From a virus (taxonomy: Duplodnaviria > Heunggongvirae > Uroviricota > Caudoviricetes), in IMG/VR virus record IMGVR_UViG_2531839486_000011: DNA of 5,433 nt; one strand, given 5' to 3'. Under the pieces are notes generated by a model. That model was not told where the DNA came from. It ran no database searches and saw nothing but the letters and a program-made list of their open reading frames with translations. A program made the position numbers and the translations under genes. Positions 402 to 5,217 of the stretch are shown piece by piece. How positions within the stretch are numbered: position 1 is the stretch's first letter; every line of letters begins with the position of its first letter.

Positions 402-557
402 TTACTCCTCAGGTTCGTAAGCTGTGAAGACAGCGACCTCCGTCTGGCCGGTTCGGATTCGTACCTCGCAGAGGTCTTTCCTCGTTACCAGTGCCGTCAC
501 TATGACGGTTAAACAGATGACGATCAGGGCGATTAACATCGCCTTTTGCTGCTTCAT
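402..557 (-). CDS. hokD: Hok/Gef family type I toxin, 51 aa (small membrane-depolarising peptide)
   Basis: The internal ATG at 557-555 of the 70-aa track ORF gives MKQQKAMLIALIVICLTVIVTALVTRKDLCEVRIRTGQTEVAVFTAYEPEE: one hydrophobic helix followed by the conserved TRKDLCE...EVAVF...AYE core of Hok/Gef/RelF. SD AAGGAG lies 9 nt upstream. Assignment to the hokD/relF subtype rather than hokC is from memory and less certain than the family call. Confidence 0.85.
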   Translation of the reverse strand: MKQQKAMLIALIVICLTVIVTALVTRKDLCEVRIRTGQTEVAVFTAYEPEE

Positions 558-614
558 AGCCTGCTTCTCCTTGCCTTTCGGCACGTAAGAGGCTAACCTA
601 GATTTGCCGTTCAT
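402..614 (-). CDS. Mok-like regulatory reading frame (in-frame N-terminal extension of hok, 70 aa)
   Basis: The track ORF 402..614 shares frame and stop with hok and starts 57 nt upstream (ATG at 614-612, SD-like TGAGG upstream). Chromosomal hok loci have such a mok frame that couples hok translation. Whether it is translated here cannot be judged from sequence. Confidence 0.45.
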   Translation of the reverse strand: MNGKSRLASYVPKGKEKQAMKQQKAMLIALIVICLTVIVTALVTRKDLCEVRIRTGQTEVAVFTAYEPEE

Positions 615-660
615 AGATTGAGCCTCAGATTAATGTTAAGCGTCTTGCAGGACGCGTAAT
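606..660 (+). ncRNA. Putative Sok-like antisense RNA opposite the mok start (coordinates approximate, placed by analogy)
   Basis: Hok loci carry a short antisense RNA complementary to the mok translation-initiation region. A possible + strand promoter is TTGCCT (571-576), 17-bp spacer, TAACCT (594-599), which would start transcription near 606. This is positional inference only. Confidence 0.2.
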
Positions 661-1070
661 GTTAACTGGGGCTTTTCTCTATCTGCCTTTGGTGTTCATG
701 CCTGAGACAGATAGCCTCAAGCACCCGCAGCCATTCTACTTAACTCCCGTTACCTCGCCAATATAAAATCAATCAGAAAGGCGATCCATAAGAACAACAG
801 CAAGACAATAAATTGCCATTACAGCTGCAATAGCCAGCGCACATTTGAGAACCAGCACGACAACCTCCTGTATTGGACGTACACCAGTCCTGATAAATAT
901 GAGGCTGTCTCATCATTGATGAGATACAACTATTGGGTATAGTTTCTGTGATTTTGTTCTGTAGAAATGGAACACAACAACCAGTCACCACCAGCACTTC
1001 TTTAAATACGCCAAGTCCGACGCAAGCTAACCTTCTAGTCCGCTTTGAGCGAAAAGCAGACTGTCACGCG

Positions 1071-1181: not shown

Positions 1182-1991
1182 ATGACGAAAATTAGTGAAC
1201 GATGGAAGCACAATGGCATTACTGAAGGTTATTGCAATATTTGTGGGAAATATGGCTTTCTCACAAAAGATCATGTTCCTCCAAAGTGCGCCATAACCTT
1301 AGGCCCTGTTTTGCAGAAAACAGTTAGCGAATTTTTTGGTATTCAGGAACCAGTTAAACCATTAAATGCTAAAAATGGCTCTTATTTCAGAACCATTTGC
1401 AGCCACTGTAACAATAAGGTATTAGGTGGGCTCGATGTTGCAATTGAAAATGTAACAAAGTCCTTTAAAGAACAGTTAAGTCGATATATGAATGGTATGA
1501 ATGTATATCCATTCATTAGAATACCTTTTGATAGCATATCTTTCACTAAGGCTATGATTGGGCACGTGCTATCAGCAACTTCAGTTGAAGATTGTAAAAA
1601 AGAACCCGTAGATAGCCCCTTCTATACACCTTTAAAGGATTATGTTTTGGGTAAAAATTCAAGTTTTGAGGAAACTCATGATATTTACTACTGGTTTTAC
1701 CCACACAGAATGCACATATCCGCTCAAAGTGTAGCATTTATGAACGAAGGACATGTGGCATTTATTTGTGCTTTACATTTTTTTCCTATCGGTTTTATTA
1801 TCACAATGAAAAATGAAGGAACATACCCTGCCCACTCTACAAAATTAGAACTTGAAGATAAATTCCTTACATTTAATATGACCTCTATAAATTATGAGTA
1901 TACGACATTTCCATTTGTAAATCTTAAGGGAAACCAAATGTATGCGATAAGCAACGGTCATACTTGTGTGAGTTATCCAATAATTAAGTGA
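1182..1991 (+). CDS. Hypothetical 269-aa protein with N-terminal HNH-like (His-Me finger, zinc-ribbon) nuclease motif; AT-rich, probably horizontally acquired
   Basis: Long ORF with a good RBS. The protein has C18-x2-C21, D31-H32 (TKDHVPPK), Asn candidates at 62/65 and C73-x2-C76-N77 (CSHCNN), the order expected for a zinc-stabilised HNH fold, although the DH to second CxxC spacing (40 aa) is longer than typical. The C-terminal ~190 aa are unrecognised. Hand-sampled G+C is about 35 percent against about 50-55 percent in flanking genes (not computed over the whole gene). Confidence 0.75.
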   Translation: MTKISERWKHNGITEGYCNICGKYGFLTKDHVPPKCAITLGPVLQKTVSEFFGIQEPVKPLNAKNGSYFRTICSHCNNKVLGGLDVAIENVTKSFKEQLSRYMNGMNVYPFIRIPFDSISFTKAMIGHVLSATSVEDCKKEPVDSPFYTPLKDYVLGKNSSFEETHDIYYWFYPHRMHISAQSVAFMNEGHVAFICALHFFPIGFIITMKNEGTYPAHSTKLELEDKFLTFNMTSINYEYTTFPFVNLKGNQMYAISNGHTCVSYPIIK

Positions 1992-2600: not shown

Positions 2601-3671
2601 TTACCCCCTGAAGCCCGGCGGAATTTCGTTATCCGGTTCAGAAATATGATTCACACAACGCTGGTTGTTCGTGCCGCTTACCGGGAGCAACCAGGGGTTC
2701 TCAAAATTCCGGTCCGGTCCAAAAAACGTCGTCGCTCGCTGAACAAATTCCGTTCCCGTTTTCCCGGTAGCCGCCAAGTATCTTGCGTAACGCCTCACGC
2801 CATCCAGCATGGCTTCTGGTGGCACCCCCTCGCGTAATCTGGCCTTCCAGGCACTGAAAGCGGATTTCTTCGGGTTTGCTCCGGCACGCAACGGGTACTC
2901 CCGCCAGACCTGTTCGAACACATCCGGATAATCCACTCGTCCCACAGACTGCCCGGTGTTTTCCGGGACTACCCGATCGGCTTCCCGCTGAATGGCGGAA
3001 TCGGCTTCGGGCTGCTGCAGTTGGTGTGATTGCTCCGGCCTTGCGGTCATCACCTGCTGCACAGCGCCCGAATCGGCTTTCAGCGCATACGCTGAATCGG
3101 CTTCCGGTGTCGTGCCTGCTGGCTGACCAAGATTGACGGTCTGAACATCCCCTGCCTGGTTCGTGGCGTTTTTTACGCCATGGACCATAGTGTTTTGATC
3201 TTCTTGATCTGTATCTTTATCTGTATCTTTATCTGTCGTGACTCGTCGTGACATGTGCGTGACATTTCGTGACGCGCCGTGACAATCGCCATTTTGTTCC
3301 CGCTTTCTTTCCCTCTCTCGCTGCGCCCTCTTGCGCTCTGCAGGAGATTTTGCGGTTTGCGAAATATTGCCGTTGTCCTCTTTAAGCACCTGGCGTTTTT
3401 CCCATCCAGTGATTAAATCACCATCAAGTACCCGCCCCTGCATCGTCTGCAAAATTGAATCAATTACCTCTTCTGTCACGTCGAGCGCACTTGCCAAATC
3501 TTCTGTCGTGACATCAATGTGACCTCGCGTGACATTTCGTGACGCGCTCACCAGGAGGTGGATATACACTGCCATCACTGTTGCAATTGGCTGCCCTGAC
3601 ACTCTGGCAATTGTTCGCCACTTAGGGTCATTTGGCATGTCATGCCATAATCTGAGCCAGGCGTTAGCCAT
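2601..3671 (-). CDS. Putative phage replication initiator / replisome organiser (O-like position), about 356 aa
   Basis: Track ORF 2601..3677 begins at a GTG. The ATG two codons in (3671-3669) has a better SD (GAGG about 5 nt upstream), so I place the start at 3671. It is the third gene of the cro-side operon. The coding sequence contains iteron-like phased repeats and encodes a low-complexity acidic linker (TDKDTDKDTDQEDQ) between two domains, as in lambda O with ori inside the gene. Domain identity itself was not recognised with certainty. Confidence 0.7.
   Translation of the reverse strand: MANAWLRLWHDMPNDPKWRTIARVSGQPIATVMAVYIHLLVSASRNVTRGHIDVTTEDLASALDVTEEVIDSILQTMQGRVLDGDLITGWEKRQVLKEDNGNISQTAKSPAERKRAQRERERKREQNGDCHGASRNVTHMSRRVTTDKDTDKDTDQEDQNTMVHGVKNATNQAGDVQTVNLGQPAGTTPEADSAYALKADSGAVQQVMTARPEQSHQLQQPEADSAIQREADRVVPENTGQSVGRVDYPDVFEQVWREYPLRAGANPKKSAFSAWKARLREGVPPEAMLDGVRRYARYLAATGKTGTEFVQRATTFFGPDRNFENPWLLPVSGTNNQRCVNHISEPDNEIPPGFRG
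3207..3284. repeat. Repeat cluster 1 inside the replication gene: 12-bp tandem ATCTGTATCTTT (about 2.5 copies, 3207-3236) followed by five CGTGAC motifs at 10-11 bp phasing (3237, 3247, 3258, 3268, 3278)
   Basis: Read directly from the sequence. Spacings of 10, 11, 10 and 10 bp equal one helical turn. Candidate origin iterons. Confidence 0.5.
3475..3547. repeat. Repeat cluster 2 inside the replication gene: (C/T)GTGAC motifs at 3507, 3518, 3528, 3538 (10-11 bp phasing) plus an inverted copy GTCACG at 3475-3480
   Basis: Read directly from the sequence. Includes a 21-bp exact direct repeat of cluster 1: GCGTGACATTTCGTGACGCGC at 3257-3277 and 3527-3547. Confidence 0.5.
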
Positions 3672-3741
3672 ACTCACCTCTTCTGATACCGAATCTTTTA
3701 CTCACGAGTTGCCGGAAGCGATTCGATATGGCTATTATCAC

Positions 3742-4167
3742 TCAATGCACTGCCACAGCATTTCCTGCCGGGCCACCACGGTTCATCTGATTGAAACCGG
3801 CGATTGCCACTGCGACAAAATCATCAGCGTCTCTCACCAGTCGCTCCCGCGTCTCCACCAGCTCCCGAAAATAAGCTGAACTGTGGCTGCGCATTCTGGC
3901 CACCAGCAAAGGTGGCATTGCCTTTTCGATCGCTGGTAACAACGCCTGAATTTTTTCAACTGCATCAGGGGTGTCTTTCTCTACCCAGCGGAAAATTTTC
4001 TGGGTATTGCGAGCCAGGGCTTCCGGATGGCTGTCGTCATACAGTTCTGGGAACGTCATACCCAGTTCAAAATAAGCCCTGGTTATTTCAGCTGCCGGAA
4101 CTTTTTCACCGTCCGGATGCGCCCAGGCATTCATCGCCATGCGGATGTGTTCATGCTTGATTTTCAT
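3742..4167 (-). CDS. ydaT: YdaT-like protein (CII-position protein / toxic component of the Rac-type YdaS-YdaT module), 141 aa
   Basis: Track ORF with ATG at 4167-4165 and SD AGGAG 8 nt upstream. The N-terminus MKIKHEHIR and the size match my recollection of Rac YdaT. It is the second gene after the Cro-like gene and overlaps its stop by 17 nt. Confidence 0.7.
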   Translation of the reverse strand: MKIKHEHIRMAMNAWAHPDGEKVPAAEITRAYFELGMTFPELYDDSHPEALARNTQKIFRWVEKDTPDAVEKIQALLPAIEKAMPPLLVARMRSHSSAYFRELVETRERLVRDADDFVAVAIAGFNQMNRGGPAGNAVAVH

Positions 4168-4432
4168 GAATCAAGCTCCTAGAAAGTGGTTGTGTTAACG
4201 TTTTGGTATCTTCCAGCTCGGGCCAAATATTCATCCAATCAAAAGGCCTTAGTTGCTGACGTGTAACTTCACCATTACTGGCTCGCTCAATAAGGACACA
4301 TAACGATGCCCCTAACACTTGACCTTTACTCAATGCCTTTCTTAGATAACCGATGCTGGTACCACACTCGCATGCAAACATACGCTGTTCATCTGACGAA
4401 AGAGAATTGAGAAATATTCTTAATTCTTCCAT
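4151..4432 (-). CDS. ydaS: Cro/YdaS-like small DNA-binding protein, 93 aa
   Basis: Track ORF with ATG at 4432-4430 and SD AAGGAG 6 nt upstream. It is the first gene of the operon divergent from the repressor. The motif ...IERASNGEVTRQQLRPFDW...WPEL resembles the YdaS/Cro-like family (recalled, not searched). Confidence 0.7.
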   Translation of the reverse strand: MEELRIFLNSLSSDEQRMFACECGTSIGYLRKALSKGQVLGASLCVLIERASNGEVTRQQLRPFDWMNIWPELEDTKTLTQPLSRSLIHENQA

Positions 4433-4532
4433 AGCTACTCCTTAGTAAACACAGTAAAGAATACCCACAGGTAAACAAAAGTCAATACCCACAGGTTGTT
4501 TACCTTGCGGTAATCGCATCTATTATTTACCT
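4433..4532. promoter_or_regulatory. Divergent promoter/operator region between the Cro-like gene and the repressor gene, with two operator-like sites TACCCACAGGTA (4462-4473) and TACCCACAGGTT (4486-4497)
   Basis: Minus-strand candidate promoter: -35 TTGACT (4485-4480), 16-bp spacer, -10 TATTCT (4463-4458). Plus-strand candidate: -10 TATTAT (4521-4526) placing +1 at about the repressor ATG (4533), with no SD, so a leaderless mRNA as for lambda cI from PRM; its -35 is weak. The two sites are 24 bp apart and overlap the promoter elements. Confidence 0.45.
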
Positions 4533-4952
4533 ATGGACAAATATGAATTTAGACGACAGCAACTCATCAAAATTCGTGATGAGAAATGCGATGGTAAAGC
4601 GGTTAACGTGGCCAGAAAGATCGGGCGCGAGCCTTCTTATGTATCAAGAATGTTGTACCCAGAGGGGAAAAAGGGAAAAAAACGGATCGCTGATGATATG
4701 GTGGAGATTATCGAAGAGTCCTTTGGGTTACCCCGGGGATGGATGGATGGTATCGTTTCATCATCAACGAACACAGCCTCCAGTTATGAAACAAGGGTTC
4801 TAACGCCACGACAACGTATTTTTTTAGATCTCTTAGACGAACTGCCAGAAAGTGAAGCGGATAACTTATTAAAAACTCTTGAAGAGAAAAAACAGTATTA
4901 CAATATGATCTACGAAGAAATCCGTAAAAAGAAAGCACAAAACGCATCATAG
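4533..4952 (+). CDS. Prophage repressor-like HTH DNA-binding protein, 139 aa (cI/RacR functional position)
   Basis: Track ORF with ATG at 4533 and no SD (consistent with a leaderless transcript). Probable helix-turn-helix around GKAVNVARKIGREPSYVSRML. It is divergent from the Cro-like operon. No peptidase S24 motif was recognised. Confidence 0.7.
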   Translation: MDKYEFRRQQLIKIRDEKCDGKAVNVARKIGREPSYVSRMLYPEGKKGKKRIADDMVEIIEESFGLPRGWMDGIVSSSTNTASSYETRVLTPRQRIFLDLLDELPESEADNLLKTLEEKKQYYNMIYEEIRKKKAQNAS

Positions 4953-4994
4953 CTCACCAAACAACTAGTCACCAGTTAAGACACCGCAAAAAGT

Positions 4995-5035
4995 TACCCA
5001 TGGGTATTTACTTTTTAAATACCTATGGGTATCCT
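4995..5035 (+). promoter_or_regulatory. OL/PL-like region: perfect 12-bp palindrome TACCCATGGGTA (4995-5006) and near-copy TACCTATGGGTA (5020-5031) flanking a candidate promoter (-35 TTTACT 5007-5012, -10 TATCCT 5030-5035)
   Basis: Palindromes read directly from the sequence. They share the TACCCA...GGTA half-sites of the two sites in the divergent region, with a similar 25-bp centre spacing. Located downstream of the repressor gene and upstream of the small + strand genes. Confidence 0.45.
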
Positions 5036-5217
5036 TCTTTTCATACCAACCCACCCCGCCCCACAGAATGCAGGGCAATACTTCGAGTTACCAGGCAGTG
5101 GTCAGGGGTTAAGTAGCCAGCCCGAGGCGTAAGAACATGACGGCAGGGTTCAACTTTAATAACTATGCAGCAGGTTTTTGTTCCGCTACCCCGGCGTTAA
5201 GGGGAAATGAGGTCAGC

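Follow-up and report, generated by a model that had tools for sequence, protein, structure and literature searches.

Among the known immunity regions closest to the locus described here are those of two E. coli prophages, CP-933P (Sp12) of O157:H7 and Rac of K-12. YdaT of CP-933P is a characterised DNA-binding protein and a functional analogue of lambda CII. Its box has been footprinted and its activation of the promoter PRE has been shown (PMC9986795, PMC8630535). Rac YdaT likewise binds its box and activates PRE (PMC11879457). In CP-933P the PRE start was placed within the box, whereas in Rac the activated promoter lies about 190 bp away, inside ydaS. The mRNAs of lambda cI and of paaR2 are leaderless (PMC8630535).

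The locus lies in a window of 5,433 nucleotides, the whole stretch of DNA that was analysed. With a probability of roughly 85%, it is an ordinary immunity region, that is, a lysis/lysogeny switch resembling lambda cI-cro-cII, and not a toxin or addiction module.

Genes of the Locus

Three open reading frames make up the locus.

3742..4167, minus strand: ydaT, a CII-functional-analogue transcription factor of 141 aa, with a POU-like helix-turn-helix (HTH) domain and a tetramerisation helix
4151..4432, minus strand: cro-like gene, 93 aa, 'YdaS family' in the annotation of some genomes; Shine-Dalgarno sequence AAGGAG 6 nt upstream of the ATG
4533..4952, plus strand: prophage repressor gene, 139 aa; lambda-repressor-like HTH in residues 1-75, disordered linker in 76-86, two-helix DicA/PaaR-like C-terminus at about 89-139

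The calls agree with the original prediction in the placing of all three genes, in their divergence and in the 17-nt overlap of the minus-strand pair, which is the shared segment 4151-4167. The 141-aa frame starts MKIKHEHIR, and a 100-bp intergenic region (4433-4532) separates the pair from the plus-strand gene. RefSeq annotates the same three coding sequences in identical prophages, as 'toxin YdaT family protein', 'transcriptional regulator' and 'hypothetical protein'. The 17-nt overlap is also found in CFT073, in a paaR/parE-type prophage of O157:H7 and in the dicC/ydfX pair of Qin, and is thus a conserved feature rather than a chance one.

The identical prophage carries int, xis, exo, dicB, an O-like gene, Q, and lysis, terminase, portal and protease genes, with DicF in the left arm (the PL side). 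The host element looks like a complete lambdoid prophage of E. coli. In the whole window, hok/sok alone is a bona fide element of addiction type.

YdaT and Its Box

The 141-aa protein had been predicted to be YdaT-like, and it is a genuine member of the family. It scores 39.6 bits against Pfam PF06254 (cut-off 21) and aligns over its full length (141 aa) with K-12 Rac YdaT at 33% identity (E 9e-16). Much closer matches have solved structures: it is identical at 139 of 141 positions to YdaT of E. coli CFT073 (PDB 3C4R) and at 120 of 141 (85%) to CP-933P YdaT (PDB 8BT1). Through this identity it has the POU-like HTH fold and the C-terminal tetramerisation helix, and its recognition helix (residues 50-61) is the same as that of CP-933P, Arg60 and Trp61 included. 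It also matches PHROG 163, 'CII-like transcriptional activator'. The suggestion that YdaT is a CII-like DNA-binding protein agrees with the Pfam, Rac and PDB matches and with the work on CP-933P (PMC9986795, PMC8630535).

A predicted binding site for YdaT is found where the cro-like gene and ydaT meet.

4157..4174, unstranded: YdaT box, predicted OM-type operator, TTGATTTTCATGAATCAA; an exact TTGATT-N6-AATCAA, the published site (PMC9986795)

The box spans the cro stop region, the interval from the ydaT Shine-Dalgarno sequence to the ATG, and the first ydaT codons (ATG AAA ATC AA, for MKI). The segment shared with it encodes the last seven residues of the Cro-like protein (LIHENQA). The motif matches once in the window, against 0.00 matches expected by chance, and this is its sole exact copy in a 29-kb prophage stretch (L001), in which a search for further boxes (analogues of PI or PaQ) gave only chance-level matches with two mismatches. 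The Rac box, ATGATTCATGAAAATCAA, likewise spans the ydaT ATG. By analogy with the CP-933P and Rac proteins, the window YdaT would bind this box and activate a reverse promoter. A promoter scan of 4100-4432 found no consensus-like plus-strand promoter as a PRE candidate.

The Cro-like Protein

The 93-aa protein had been proposed to be both Cro-like and of YdaS type. The first part holds, while the second is true at most in the sense of a remote relationship. Residues 1-73 are 73% identical to Cro of coliphage mEp043, and identity to the divergent Cro genes of related Salmonella and Pantoea loci is 60-67%. The protein also matches PDB 8C7K/8CO2, 'antirepressor protein Cro' (E 1e-10); a literature search by these PDB codes found no paper on it. 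Similarity to YdaS is far weaker. The score against Pfam YdaS_toxin (PF15943) is 25.8 bits, below the cut-off of 30, and the match to K-12 YdaS covers 28 aa at 54% identity by BLAST (E 1e-6) and 53 columns by hhalign (probability 70%, E 3.9e-5). The position of the gene is that of ydaS: first in the rightward operon, divergent from the repressor gene and directly upstream of ydaT.

The Repressor

The repressor was originally predicted to be of RacR type. This does not hold up, since the alignment with K-12 RacR has a BLAST E value of 2.3 and an hhalign profile probability of 0.1%. Nor does a search of Pfam and NCBIfam match any HTH family, even at E 10; it returns only a sub-threshold match to the DicA C-terminus.

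Closer relatives are found separately for the two ends of the protein. The N-terminal part is a lambda-repressor-like HTH domain that is 65% identical to the DNA-binding domain of mEp043 CI (about 65-82% over the mEp043, Salmonella and Pantoea loci together). The C-terminus resembles DicA (33% identity, E 1e-7) and a PaaR-type repressor (E 3e-5), shares with them the tail motif (L)xPxxxxLLxxFxxLPExEQ and is predicted to form two helices. The DicA match is confined to the C-terminus; the weak alignment with the PaaR-type protein begins at residue 24 and so reaches into the HTH region. By alignment, the repressor is an mEp043-type CI DNA-binding domain joined to a DicA/PaaR-like C-terminus.

In the alignment, the S24 (PF00717) part of the homologues has no counterpart in the 139-aa repressor. 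The repressor is therefore predicted not to be inactivated by RecA-stimulated autocleavage.

One possible, if on balance unlikely, origin of this arrangement is a natural domain swap. The S24 autocleavage domain of an SOS-cleavable, mEp043-type CI would have been replaced by an oligomerisation tail of DicA/PaaR type, with the DNA-binding domain, its operators and the Cro partner all retained. In that case, a RecA-blind prophage would be carried by about 15% of E. coli genomes and would have to be induced via some antirepressor or through stochastic switching. It might also be homoimmune with superinfecting SOS-inducible mEp043-type phages, and hence cross-regulate with them.

Putative Operators and Promoters

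The palindrome TACC-N4-GGTA has four exact copies in the window, where chance would give 0.03, and all fall within two clusters. In 29 kb of identical prophage, the same four exact sites are found and no others. A fifth site, with one mismatch, brings the putative operators to three between the divergent genes and two beyond the 3' end of the repressor gene.

4462..4473, unstranded: OR1, putative operator TACCCACAGGTA; TACC-N4-GGTA, its place kept in mEp043, Salmonella and Pantoea
4486..4497, unstranded: OR2, putative operator TACCCACAGGTT; one mismatch, a GGTT variant as in mEp043; centre at -41.5 from the predicted PRM start
4501..4512, unstranded: OR3, putative operator TACCTTGCGGTA; motif match, overlapping the PRM -35 hexamer
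4995..5006, unstranded: OL2, putative operator TACCCATGGGTA; motif match, kept in mEp043, Salmonella and Pantoea
5020..5031, unstranded: OL1, putative operator TACCTATGGGTA; centre at -16.5 from the predicted PL start, as for OR1 at PR

Three predicted promoters accompany them.

4458..4485, minus strand: PR-like promoter; TTGACT (4485-4480), 16-nt spacer, TATTCT (4463-4458); scan score 9/12; predicted start at about 4451
4499..4526, plus strand: PRM-like promoter, from the promoter scan; TTTACC, 16-nt spacer, TATTAT
5007..5035, plus strand: PL-like promoter; TTTACT, 17-nt spacer, TATCCT; read by eye, 8/12, below the scan threshold; predicted start at about 5042

OR1 overlaps the -10 hexamer and spacer of PR, and OR2 abuts its -35 hexamer; the two operators share a 13-nt direct repeat, AATACCCACAGGT, 24 bp apart. 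The layout of three plus two operators is common to the mEp043, Salmonella and Pantoea loci, while none of the Rac, Qin and paaR-type loci examined contains the motif. A literature search on mEp043 found no operator study. With OL and PL, the regulatory elements of the module reach about 5036, past the end at 4952 that the original prediction gave it.

The -10 hexamer of PRM ends 6 nt before the repressor ATG, which places the predicted start at A4533 and makes the mRNA leaderless. No Shine-Dalgarno sequence is present ahead of this ATG. A TAnnAT -10 hexamer is found at the same distance from the conserved start, ATGGA(C/T)AAATA, in mEp043, Salmonella and Pantoea. At the place of PL, better hexamers align in mEp043 (TAGACA-17-TATATT, upstream of N) and also in Salmonella.

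The palindrome pair at 4995-5031 could instead serve chiefly as an intrinsic terminator that ends the repressor transcript, a reading that is unlikely. A scan flagged a terminator-like 16-bp stem and T-run here, and the RNA folds with a dG of -22.9 kcal/mol (z -6.2). However, two copies of a palindromic operator yield a hairpin automatically, and only 5 of the 16 pairs in the stem are G-C. In mEp043, Salmonella and Pantoea the T-run is not kept, unlike the TTACC..GGTA half-sites with their spacing of 25 bp, and the mEp043 pair is found upstream of N, the usual place of OL and PL. The two functions could also coexist.

Proposed Switch

The gene identities, motifs, conservation, promoter geometry and mosaicism of the locus suggest the following binding and regulatory events in the window prophage.

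In a lysogen, the 139-aa repressor would be made from the leaderless PRM transcript. Bound to OR1 and OR2, it would close PR and with it transcription of the cro-like gene, ydaT, the replisome organiser and other genes to the right. Bound to OL1 and OL2, it would close PL, from which ydfA/ydfB/ydfC, DicF, dicB, ydfD, exo, xis and int would be transcribed. At OR2, centred at -41.5, the repressor probably stimulates PRM, and OR3 would serve for negative autoregulation.

Upon infection or derepression, PR would yield YdaT together with the Cro-like protein, a competitor for the same operators. A YdaT tetramer on the box at the cro/ydaT junction may then turn on a PRE-like promoter, whose transcript would run antisense through cro into the repressor gene and so establish repression.

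A Mosaic Cassette

Part of the locus appears to be exchangeable as a unit.

4175..5043, unstranded: exchangeable immunity cassette, comprising the DNA-binding part of cro, OR, the repressor gene and OL/PL; mosaic junctions at both bounds

Identity to an O157:H7 locus (L004) stops directly after the YdaT box. Comparison with O157:H7 DNA rests on L004, a paaR-type paralogue and not CP-933P itself: L004 was considered as CP-933P and rejected because its repressor begins MMSALE, and published PaaR2 begins MQKKE. Megablast of 3680-5140 against phage genomes matches only the flanks (query 1-500 and 1365-1461). The cassette is absent from phage genomes by this method; mEp043 and Tritos were found by tblastn. 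GC content is 40-44% in the cassette and 49-54% in ydaT.

Of 5426 complete E. coli genomes, 824 contain the cassette and 3036 this type of ydaT. Cassette identity is at least 97.6% in nearly all of the 824, and 822 of them cover at least 80%. Among isolated phages, Tritos and the vB_Eco series share this ydaT and the modules on either side.

Alternative Explanations

In the original prediction, the locus was a RacR/YdaS/YdaT-type toxin-repressor or addiction module: YdaT, the Cro-like protein or both would be toxic, and the repressor would be kept since its loss kills. This is very unlikely. In Rac, depletion of RacR derepresses ydaS-ydaT and is lethal (PMC5700377, PMC5700373), but the repressor of the window is unrelated to RacR. 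Rac YdaT causes filamentation via rcsA (PMC11879457), and the window protein is truly homologous to YdaT; yet its identity to Rac YdaT is only 33%, and the 85% identical CP-933P YdaT neither showed detectable toxicity (PMC8630535) nor activates rcsA, the route of toxicity in Rac (PMC11879457, Fig. 7C). The toxic phenotype is specific to Rac. Prolonged overexpression of CP-933P YdaS and PaaR2 does cause growth defects (PMC8630535), but YdaS and YdaT did not behave as a toxin-antitoxin pair in the tests of PMC8630535 or in those of Christensen-Dalsgaard 2010, as relayed by PMC5917428 (also cited in PMC9986795).

Beyond historical Pfam names, none of the three matches a toxin family, and all are HTH DNA-binding regulators. 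The operon lacks the toxin and cognate labile antitoxin of a type II system, and PADLOC defence-system models match neither the module genes nor a neighbouring orphan gene. Everything expected of a cI-cro-cII switch is present in the module, namely operators, PRM, PR, PL and a PRE box.

A point in favour of the addiction reading comes from the single genome among the 824 without the repressor gene, which has also lost PR, PL and the Shine-Dalgarno sequence of cro. The repressor is probably essential in the lysogen, as any prophage repressor is. Lethality upon its loss would be expected anyway, and is more simply explained by derepressed DicF/DicB/YdfD and lytic genes.

Also very unlikely is a decaying cryptic-prophage remnant with a dead switch, hitch-hiking genes and relic operators and promoters: many E. 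coli prophages with YdaT and a dicB arm are defective (Qin, Rac, CP-933P), an IS421 copy adjoins hok/sok in the source strain and the repressor is unable to respond to SOS, but the three reading frames, five operators and YdaT box are all intact, the cassette is near-uniform across its 824 genomes, genes for integrase, excisionase, replication, Q, lysis, terminase, portal and protease are found in the identical prophage, and isolated phages share ydaT and the flanking modules.

Significance

As a prophage immunity region, in which a repressor faces a cro-like gene and a true member of the ydaT family, the locus calls for a correction of labels. 'Toxin YdaT' (RefSeq and Pfam) and 'hypothetical protein' (RefSeq, for the repressor) are the names that hundreds of E. 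coli genomes carry, CFT073 and an O127:H6 strain among them. The repressor, operators and promoters of a common immunity type now have explicit coordinates, which can be used in prophage annotation and in forecasting superinfection immunity and the SOS-dependence or independence of induction. The mechanism is a known one, and none is newly opened. In this immunity type, an mEp043-like cassette (cro, operators and CI DNA-binding domain) forms a mosaic with a DicA-like tail and a CII analogue of CP-933P type.

Comparison with Known Systems

CP-933P (PaaR2/YdaS/YdaT; PMC8630535, PMC9986795). Both loci have a short non-S24 repressor, a PRM transcript that is leaderless (by prediction in the window), a divergent cro-like gene overlapping ydaT, OR and OL clusters, and a ydfA...dicB arm downstream of PL. 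YdaT is 85% identical, with the same recognition helix and the same junction box. The immunity specificity differs, however. Identity of Cro to its counterpart in L004, the paaR-type O157:H7 locus, is only about 27%. The DNA-binding domains of the repressors are unrelated, and what likeness there is lies mainly in the C-terminal tail. The operators are TACC-N4-GGTA in the window but GTTTAGTAA-type repeats in CP-933P. Unlike in CP-933P, the window repressor gene is not followed by a paaA2-parE2 toxin-antitoxin pair.

Rac (PMC5700377, PMC5700373, PMC11879457). The order of repressor, divergent cro-like gene, ydaT and replication gene is the same. YdaT is homologous (33%), a box lies across the ydaT start codon, and Rac YdaT activates repressor transcription from a reverse promoter. 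In contrast, the window repressor is not homologous to RacR, the likeness to YdaS is limited to the HTH core, and ydaS and ydaT of Rac do not overlap, as the window pair does. The toxicity of Rac YdaT via rcsA is not common to the CP-933P-type YdaT group, to which the window protein belongs.

Qin (DicA/DicC and the dicB operon, K-12). Shared features are the repressor C-terminal domain, the left arm ydfA-ydfB-ydfC-DicF-dicB-ydfD and the 17-nt overlap, there between cro-like dicC and the YdaT remnant ydfX. No similarity to the window proteins was detected for the N-terminal HTH of DicA or for DicC. Qin YdaT is truncated (ydfX/ydfW), whereas that of the window is full-length.

mEp043 (cI/cro), with lambda cI-cro-cII as the paradigm. 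Cro (73%) and the CI DNA-binding domain (65%) are similar, and the OR1-OR2-OR3 and OL1-OL2 sites agree in motif, order and spacing, down to the GGTT variant of OR2; the -10 hexamer is likewise set for a leaderless cI mRNA. The mEp043 cI product has 228 aa and an autocleavable S24 domain, in place of which the window repressor has a DicA-like tail. Where mEp043 carries a lambda-type cII and N, the window prophage carries YdaT and a dicB-type left arm.

Layout of the module and its prophage

The three-gene arrangement given in the original prediction is confirmed. Two minus-strand genes overlap by 17 nt (4151-4167), and a 100-bp spacer separates them from a divergent plus-strand gene.

3742-4167, minus strand: ydaT, ORF of 141 aa (MKIKHEHIR...)
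4151-4432, minus strand: cro-like gene, ORF of 93 aa
4533-4952, plus strand: repressor gene, ORF of 139 aa

From position 379 onward, the window is 100% identical to a prophage adjoining ompW in several E. coli chromosomes. This prophage looks complete. It carries int, xis, exo, dicB, the immunity region, a replisome organiser, hokD, RusA and a Q-like antiterminator, along with lysis genes, terminase, portal and protease. There RefSeq labels the ydaT gene 'toxin YdaT family protein', the cro-like gene 'transcriptional regulator' and the repressor gene 'hypothetical protein'.

A chimeric repressor

Judged by its matches, the 139-aa protein is a prophage repressor. Its proposed membership of the RacR type did not hold up, homology to RacR being rejected (BLAST E 2.3; profile comparison 0.1% probability). 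Homologues were sought among 5.8 billion proteins. Residues 1-75 share 65-82% identity with the N-terminal domain found in LexA-family (S24 peptidase) repressors of 221-242 aa from Salmonella, Pantoea, Klebsiella, Edwardsiella and others, and this domain is 65% identical to that of the phage mEp043 cI. The last ~50 residues align with the C-terminus of DicA (33% identity, E 1e-7) and also with that of a PaaR-type repressor (E 3e-5). In an AlphaFold model (pLDDT 83), the N-terminal domain is helical (four DSSP helices), the linker (76-86) is disordered and the C-terminal part consists of two helices. Taken together, the two matches and the model make the repressor a chimera of a CI-type DNA-binding domain and a DicA-type tail; it has no autocleavage domain. 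Neither this repressor nor its operators are apparently described in the searchable literature.

The Cro protein

The 93-aa protein had been called both Cro-like and a possible YdaS. The first description stands: it is 73% identical to the Cro of coliphage mEp043 across residues 1-73 and 60-67% identical to the products of Cro genes in Salmonella and Pantoea loci, and PDB entries titled 'antirepressor protein Cro' match it at E 1e-10. The link to YdaS is weaker. The Pfam YdaS_toxin score is 25.8 bits, under the gathering score of 30. Against K-12 YdaS, BLAST matches 28 residues, and the hhalign probability across the HTH core is 70%. The protein can thus be regarded as a Cro with a remote relationship to YdaS. 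The DNA that codes for its final seven residues, LIHENQA, is a segment common to other YdaT modules.

YdaT and its binding site

The predicted YdaT assignment proved sound. The 141-aa protein is a genuine YdaT: it reaches 39.6 bits with Pfam PF06254 (cut-off 21), and its alignment with K-12 Rac YdaT covers the full length (33% identity, E 9e-16). It is identical at 120 of 141 positions (85%) to YdaT of the O157:H7 prophage CP-933P (PDB 8BT1), which places it by sequence in the CP-933P branch, not the Rac branch. A CFT073 protein, PDB 3C4R, is identical at 139 of 141; this YdaT of the same immunity type is titled 'uncharacterized protein'. Recognition-helix residues 50-61 are the same in the window and CP-933P proteins, including Arg60, the sole residue of that helix reported as invariant across the family (PMC9986795).

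CP-933P YdaT, a tetramer with a POU-like HTH, footprints 5'-TTGATT-N6-AATCAA-3' at the ydaS end and switches on a PRE-like promoter directed at the repressor gene, which makes it functionally equivalent to lambda CII (PMC9986795, PMC8630535). The window contains exactly one copy of this site, with 0.00 expected by chance, and the 29 kb of identical prophage contain no other exact copy.

4157-4174: predicted YdaT box, TTGATTTTCATGAATCAA, exact match to the published site

The box falls within the final codons of the cro-like gene, and its minus-strand reading includes the ydaT start codon and first codons (ATG AAA ATC AA). The Rac box, ATGATTCATGAAAATCAA, likewise spans the Rac ydaT ATG. The box probably contributes to the conserved MKIK N-terminus of YdaT proteins. 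Its position also agrees with the finding of a 17-nt overlap in CFT073, in an O157:H7 prophage of the paaR type and in Qin dicC/ydfX. A ydaT of the window type occurs in 3036 of 5426 complete E. coli genomes, beside variously annotated Cro genes.

Predicted operators and promoters

The motif TACC-N4-GGTA occurs in the window in four exact copies, against 0.03 expected, and once more with one mismatch.

4462-4473: OR1, predicted operator, divergent spacer
4486-4497: OR2, predicted operator, divergent spacer
4501-4512: OR3, predicted operator, divergent spacer
4995-5006: OL2, predicted operator; the OL pair lies 43 bp downstream of the repressor stop
5020-5031: OL1, predicted operator, downstream of the repressor gene
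4485-4458, minus strand: predicted PR-like promoter, TTGACT-16-TATTCT (promoter scan)
4499-4526, plus strand: predicted PRM-like promoter, TTTACC-16-TATTAT (promoter scan)
5007-5035: predicted PL, weaker and sub-consensus, TTTACT-17-TATCCT (8/12 match)

From these coordinates, OR1 would be centred at -16.5, overlapping the PR -10, and OL1 would sit at the same -16.5 relative to PL. OR3 would cover the PRM -35. OR2 would abut the PR -35 and be centred at -41.5 from the PRM start, the position at which lambda CI bound to OR2 contacts RNA polymerase. The repressor ATG lies 6 nt past the end of the PRM -10 hexamer and no Shine-Dalgarno sequence is present ahead of it, so a leaderless repressor mRNA starting at A4533 may be expected. 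Such mRNAs have been shown for lambda cI and paaR2 (PMC8630535).

The sequence TTATTTACCTATGG at 4523-4536, over the repressor start codon, repeats the left half of OL1, TTAAATACCTATGG. This could be a fourth half-operator, a weak one, located on the start of PRM transcription.

The OL palindromes jointly form a 16-bp hairpin followed by a T-run (4995-5040, plus strand; dG -22.9 kcal/mol, z -6.2). This looks like a terminator directly after the repressor gene; the T-run is not kept in mEp043, Salmonella or Pantoea.

The layout of three plus two operators recurs in mEp043, where one cluster lies upstream of cI and one upstream of N, in two Salmonella loci and in Pantoea. OR1-OR2 spacing is kept at 24 bp (25 bp in Pantoea) and OL spacing at 25-26 bp. 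In alignments the TTACC...GGTAA half-sites are invariant and neighbouring bases variable; a TAnnAT -10 ahead of the conserved ATGGA(C/T)AAATA start is also invariant. Rac, Qin and the paaR-type locus lack the motif. The predicted operators thus travel with the CI DNA-binding domain and Cro, regardless of the repressor C-terminal domain. Such co-travel is, short of footprinting, the best available evidence for the predicted operators.

Toxicity and addiction

By the precedent of Rac, the module could be read as a toxic, addiction-like element, as the original prediction inferred. In Rac, RacR depletion is lethal and YdaT activates rcsA, leading to filamentation (PMC5700377, PMC5700373, PMC11879457). 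However, the window YdaT belongs to the CP-933P branch (85% identity, against 33% for Rac), and CP-933P YdaT does not activate rcsA (PMC11879457, Fig. 7C). Jurenas et al. saw no toxic effect of CP-933P YdaT and held that YdaS-YdaT is not a toxin-antitoxin system (PMC8630535); Jobling's argument from genetic context agrees. The addiction-like role was thus not borne out.

Loss of the repressor would probably still be lethal in a lysogen. In the identical prophage, PL leads into ydfABC, DicF sRNA, dicB and ydfD, and PR leads to replication and, via Q, lysis. Repressor essentiality would therefore be an ordinary property of a prophage repressor, and DicF, dicB and ydfD are the likeliest source of lethality upon derepression. 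The sole bona fide toxin-antitoxin or addiction-type element in the window is hokD/sok.

402-726, minus strand: hok/sok locus with the hokD toxin gene (annotated CDS 402-557), Pfam HOK_GEF 81.6 bits
552-726: sok antisense RNA of hokD, Rfam RF01794, 110 bits
17716-17767 (plus strand) and 17942-18318 of L001, the 29-kb identical prophage stretch: DicF sRNA (Rfam 76.7 bits), dicB and ydfD, PL arm, downstream of the window

Mosaic structure and distribution

Megablast matches to phage genomes are confined to 3680-4180 and 5044-5140. DNA identity to an O157:H7 locus covers the ydaT 5' end and the YdaT box and ends at ~4175; this comparison stands on L004, a paralogous paaR-type locus, not on CP-933P itself. 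The intervening cassette has a GC content of 40-44%, against 49-54% in ydaT. Of 5426 complete E. coli genomes, 824 carry it (4175-4990), among them CFT073 and an O127:H6 strain, almost always at >=97.6% identity. The locus thereby shows the classic lambdoid pattern of an exchangeable immunity cassette beside a shared CII/PRE module.

In E. coli 2018-166 (NZ_CP075632.1; L010 3740-3830), an IS1A element stands in place of a segment that begins 6 bp ahead of the cro ATG and takes in the repressor, OL/PL and ydfABC. This is the sole genome among the 824 carriers without the repressor. PR, the cro Shine-Dalgarno and PL are also gone, and cro, the ydaT-family gene and the replication genes are retained, all without a promoter. 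As evidence on repressor loss, this variant is suggestive but anecdotal.

Other features of the window

Positions 1-378 hold the end of an IS421 (IS4-like) element and match many copies of it at 99.8% identity. Since the best prophage matches begin at 379, the source strain has IS421 inserted beside the hok/sok locus.

1182-1991, plus strand: orphan gene, 269 aa, PHROG 21495 (function not assigned there)
2138-2560: DUF977 gene, matching the PHROG 'Ren-like exclusion protein' family
2601-3677, minus strand: replisome-organiser (O-like) gene, 358 aa, with GTGAC-rich iteron-like repeats in the coding sequence
3202-3237, 3245-3283 and 3505-3543: repeats within the replisome-organiser gene

The orphan gene lies in a low-GC island (32-37%, against ~50% around it) and is transcribed against the early-right operon. 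Pfam and PADLOC searches gave no match; the N-terminus has an HNH-like CxxC...DHVPP...CxxCN pattern, with HNH_5 at E 0.3 only. It is possibly a moron or defence gene. In the replisome-organiser gene, a 12-nt tandem repeat (x3) encodes TDKD repeats, and the last 24 residues of the protein resemble DnaT. No P/DnaC-like loader gene follows; the DUF977 gene is next.

Relation to known systems

How induction would work when the chimeric repressor cannot be cleaved is mildly interesting, as is the possibility of homoimmunity with SOS-inducible phages of the mEp043 type.

Escherichia phage Tritos (OV696610.1), an isolated phage, shares the replisome-organiser gene and the DicF/dicB/ydfD arm with the window prophage. 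Its CI is of the short form and shares 39.5% identity with residues 21-139 of the window repressor. The gene at its YdaT position matches the window ydaT at ~96% in DNA, and its 'Rha family transcriptional regulator' label is probably a mis-annotation.

The O157:H7 F7508 locus (L004 4289-4690) is of the paaR/paaA(relB)/parE type, and its YdaT is 90% identical to that of the window. Its repressor starts MMSALE..., whereas published PaaR2 starts MQKKE, so the locus is paralogous and not CP-933P.

Functionally and architecturally, the PaaR2-YdaS-YdaT region of CP-933P is the same kind of element as the window module, and Rac and Qin are more distant members of that kind. The predicted immunity specificity of the module is a different one, which it would share with phage mEp043.
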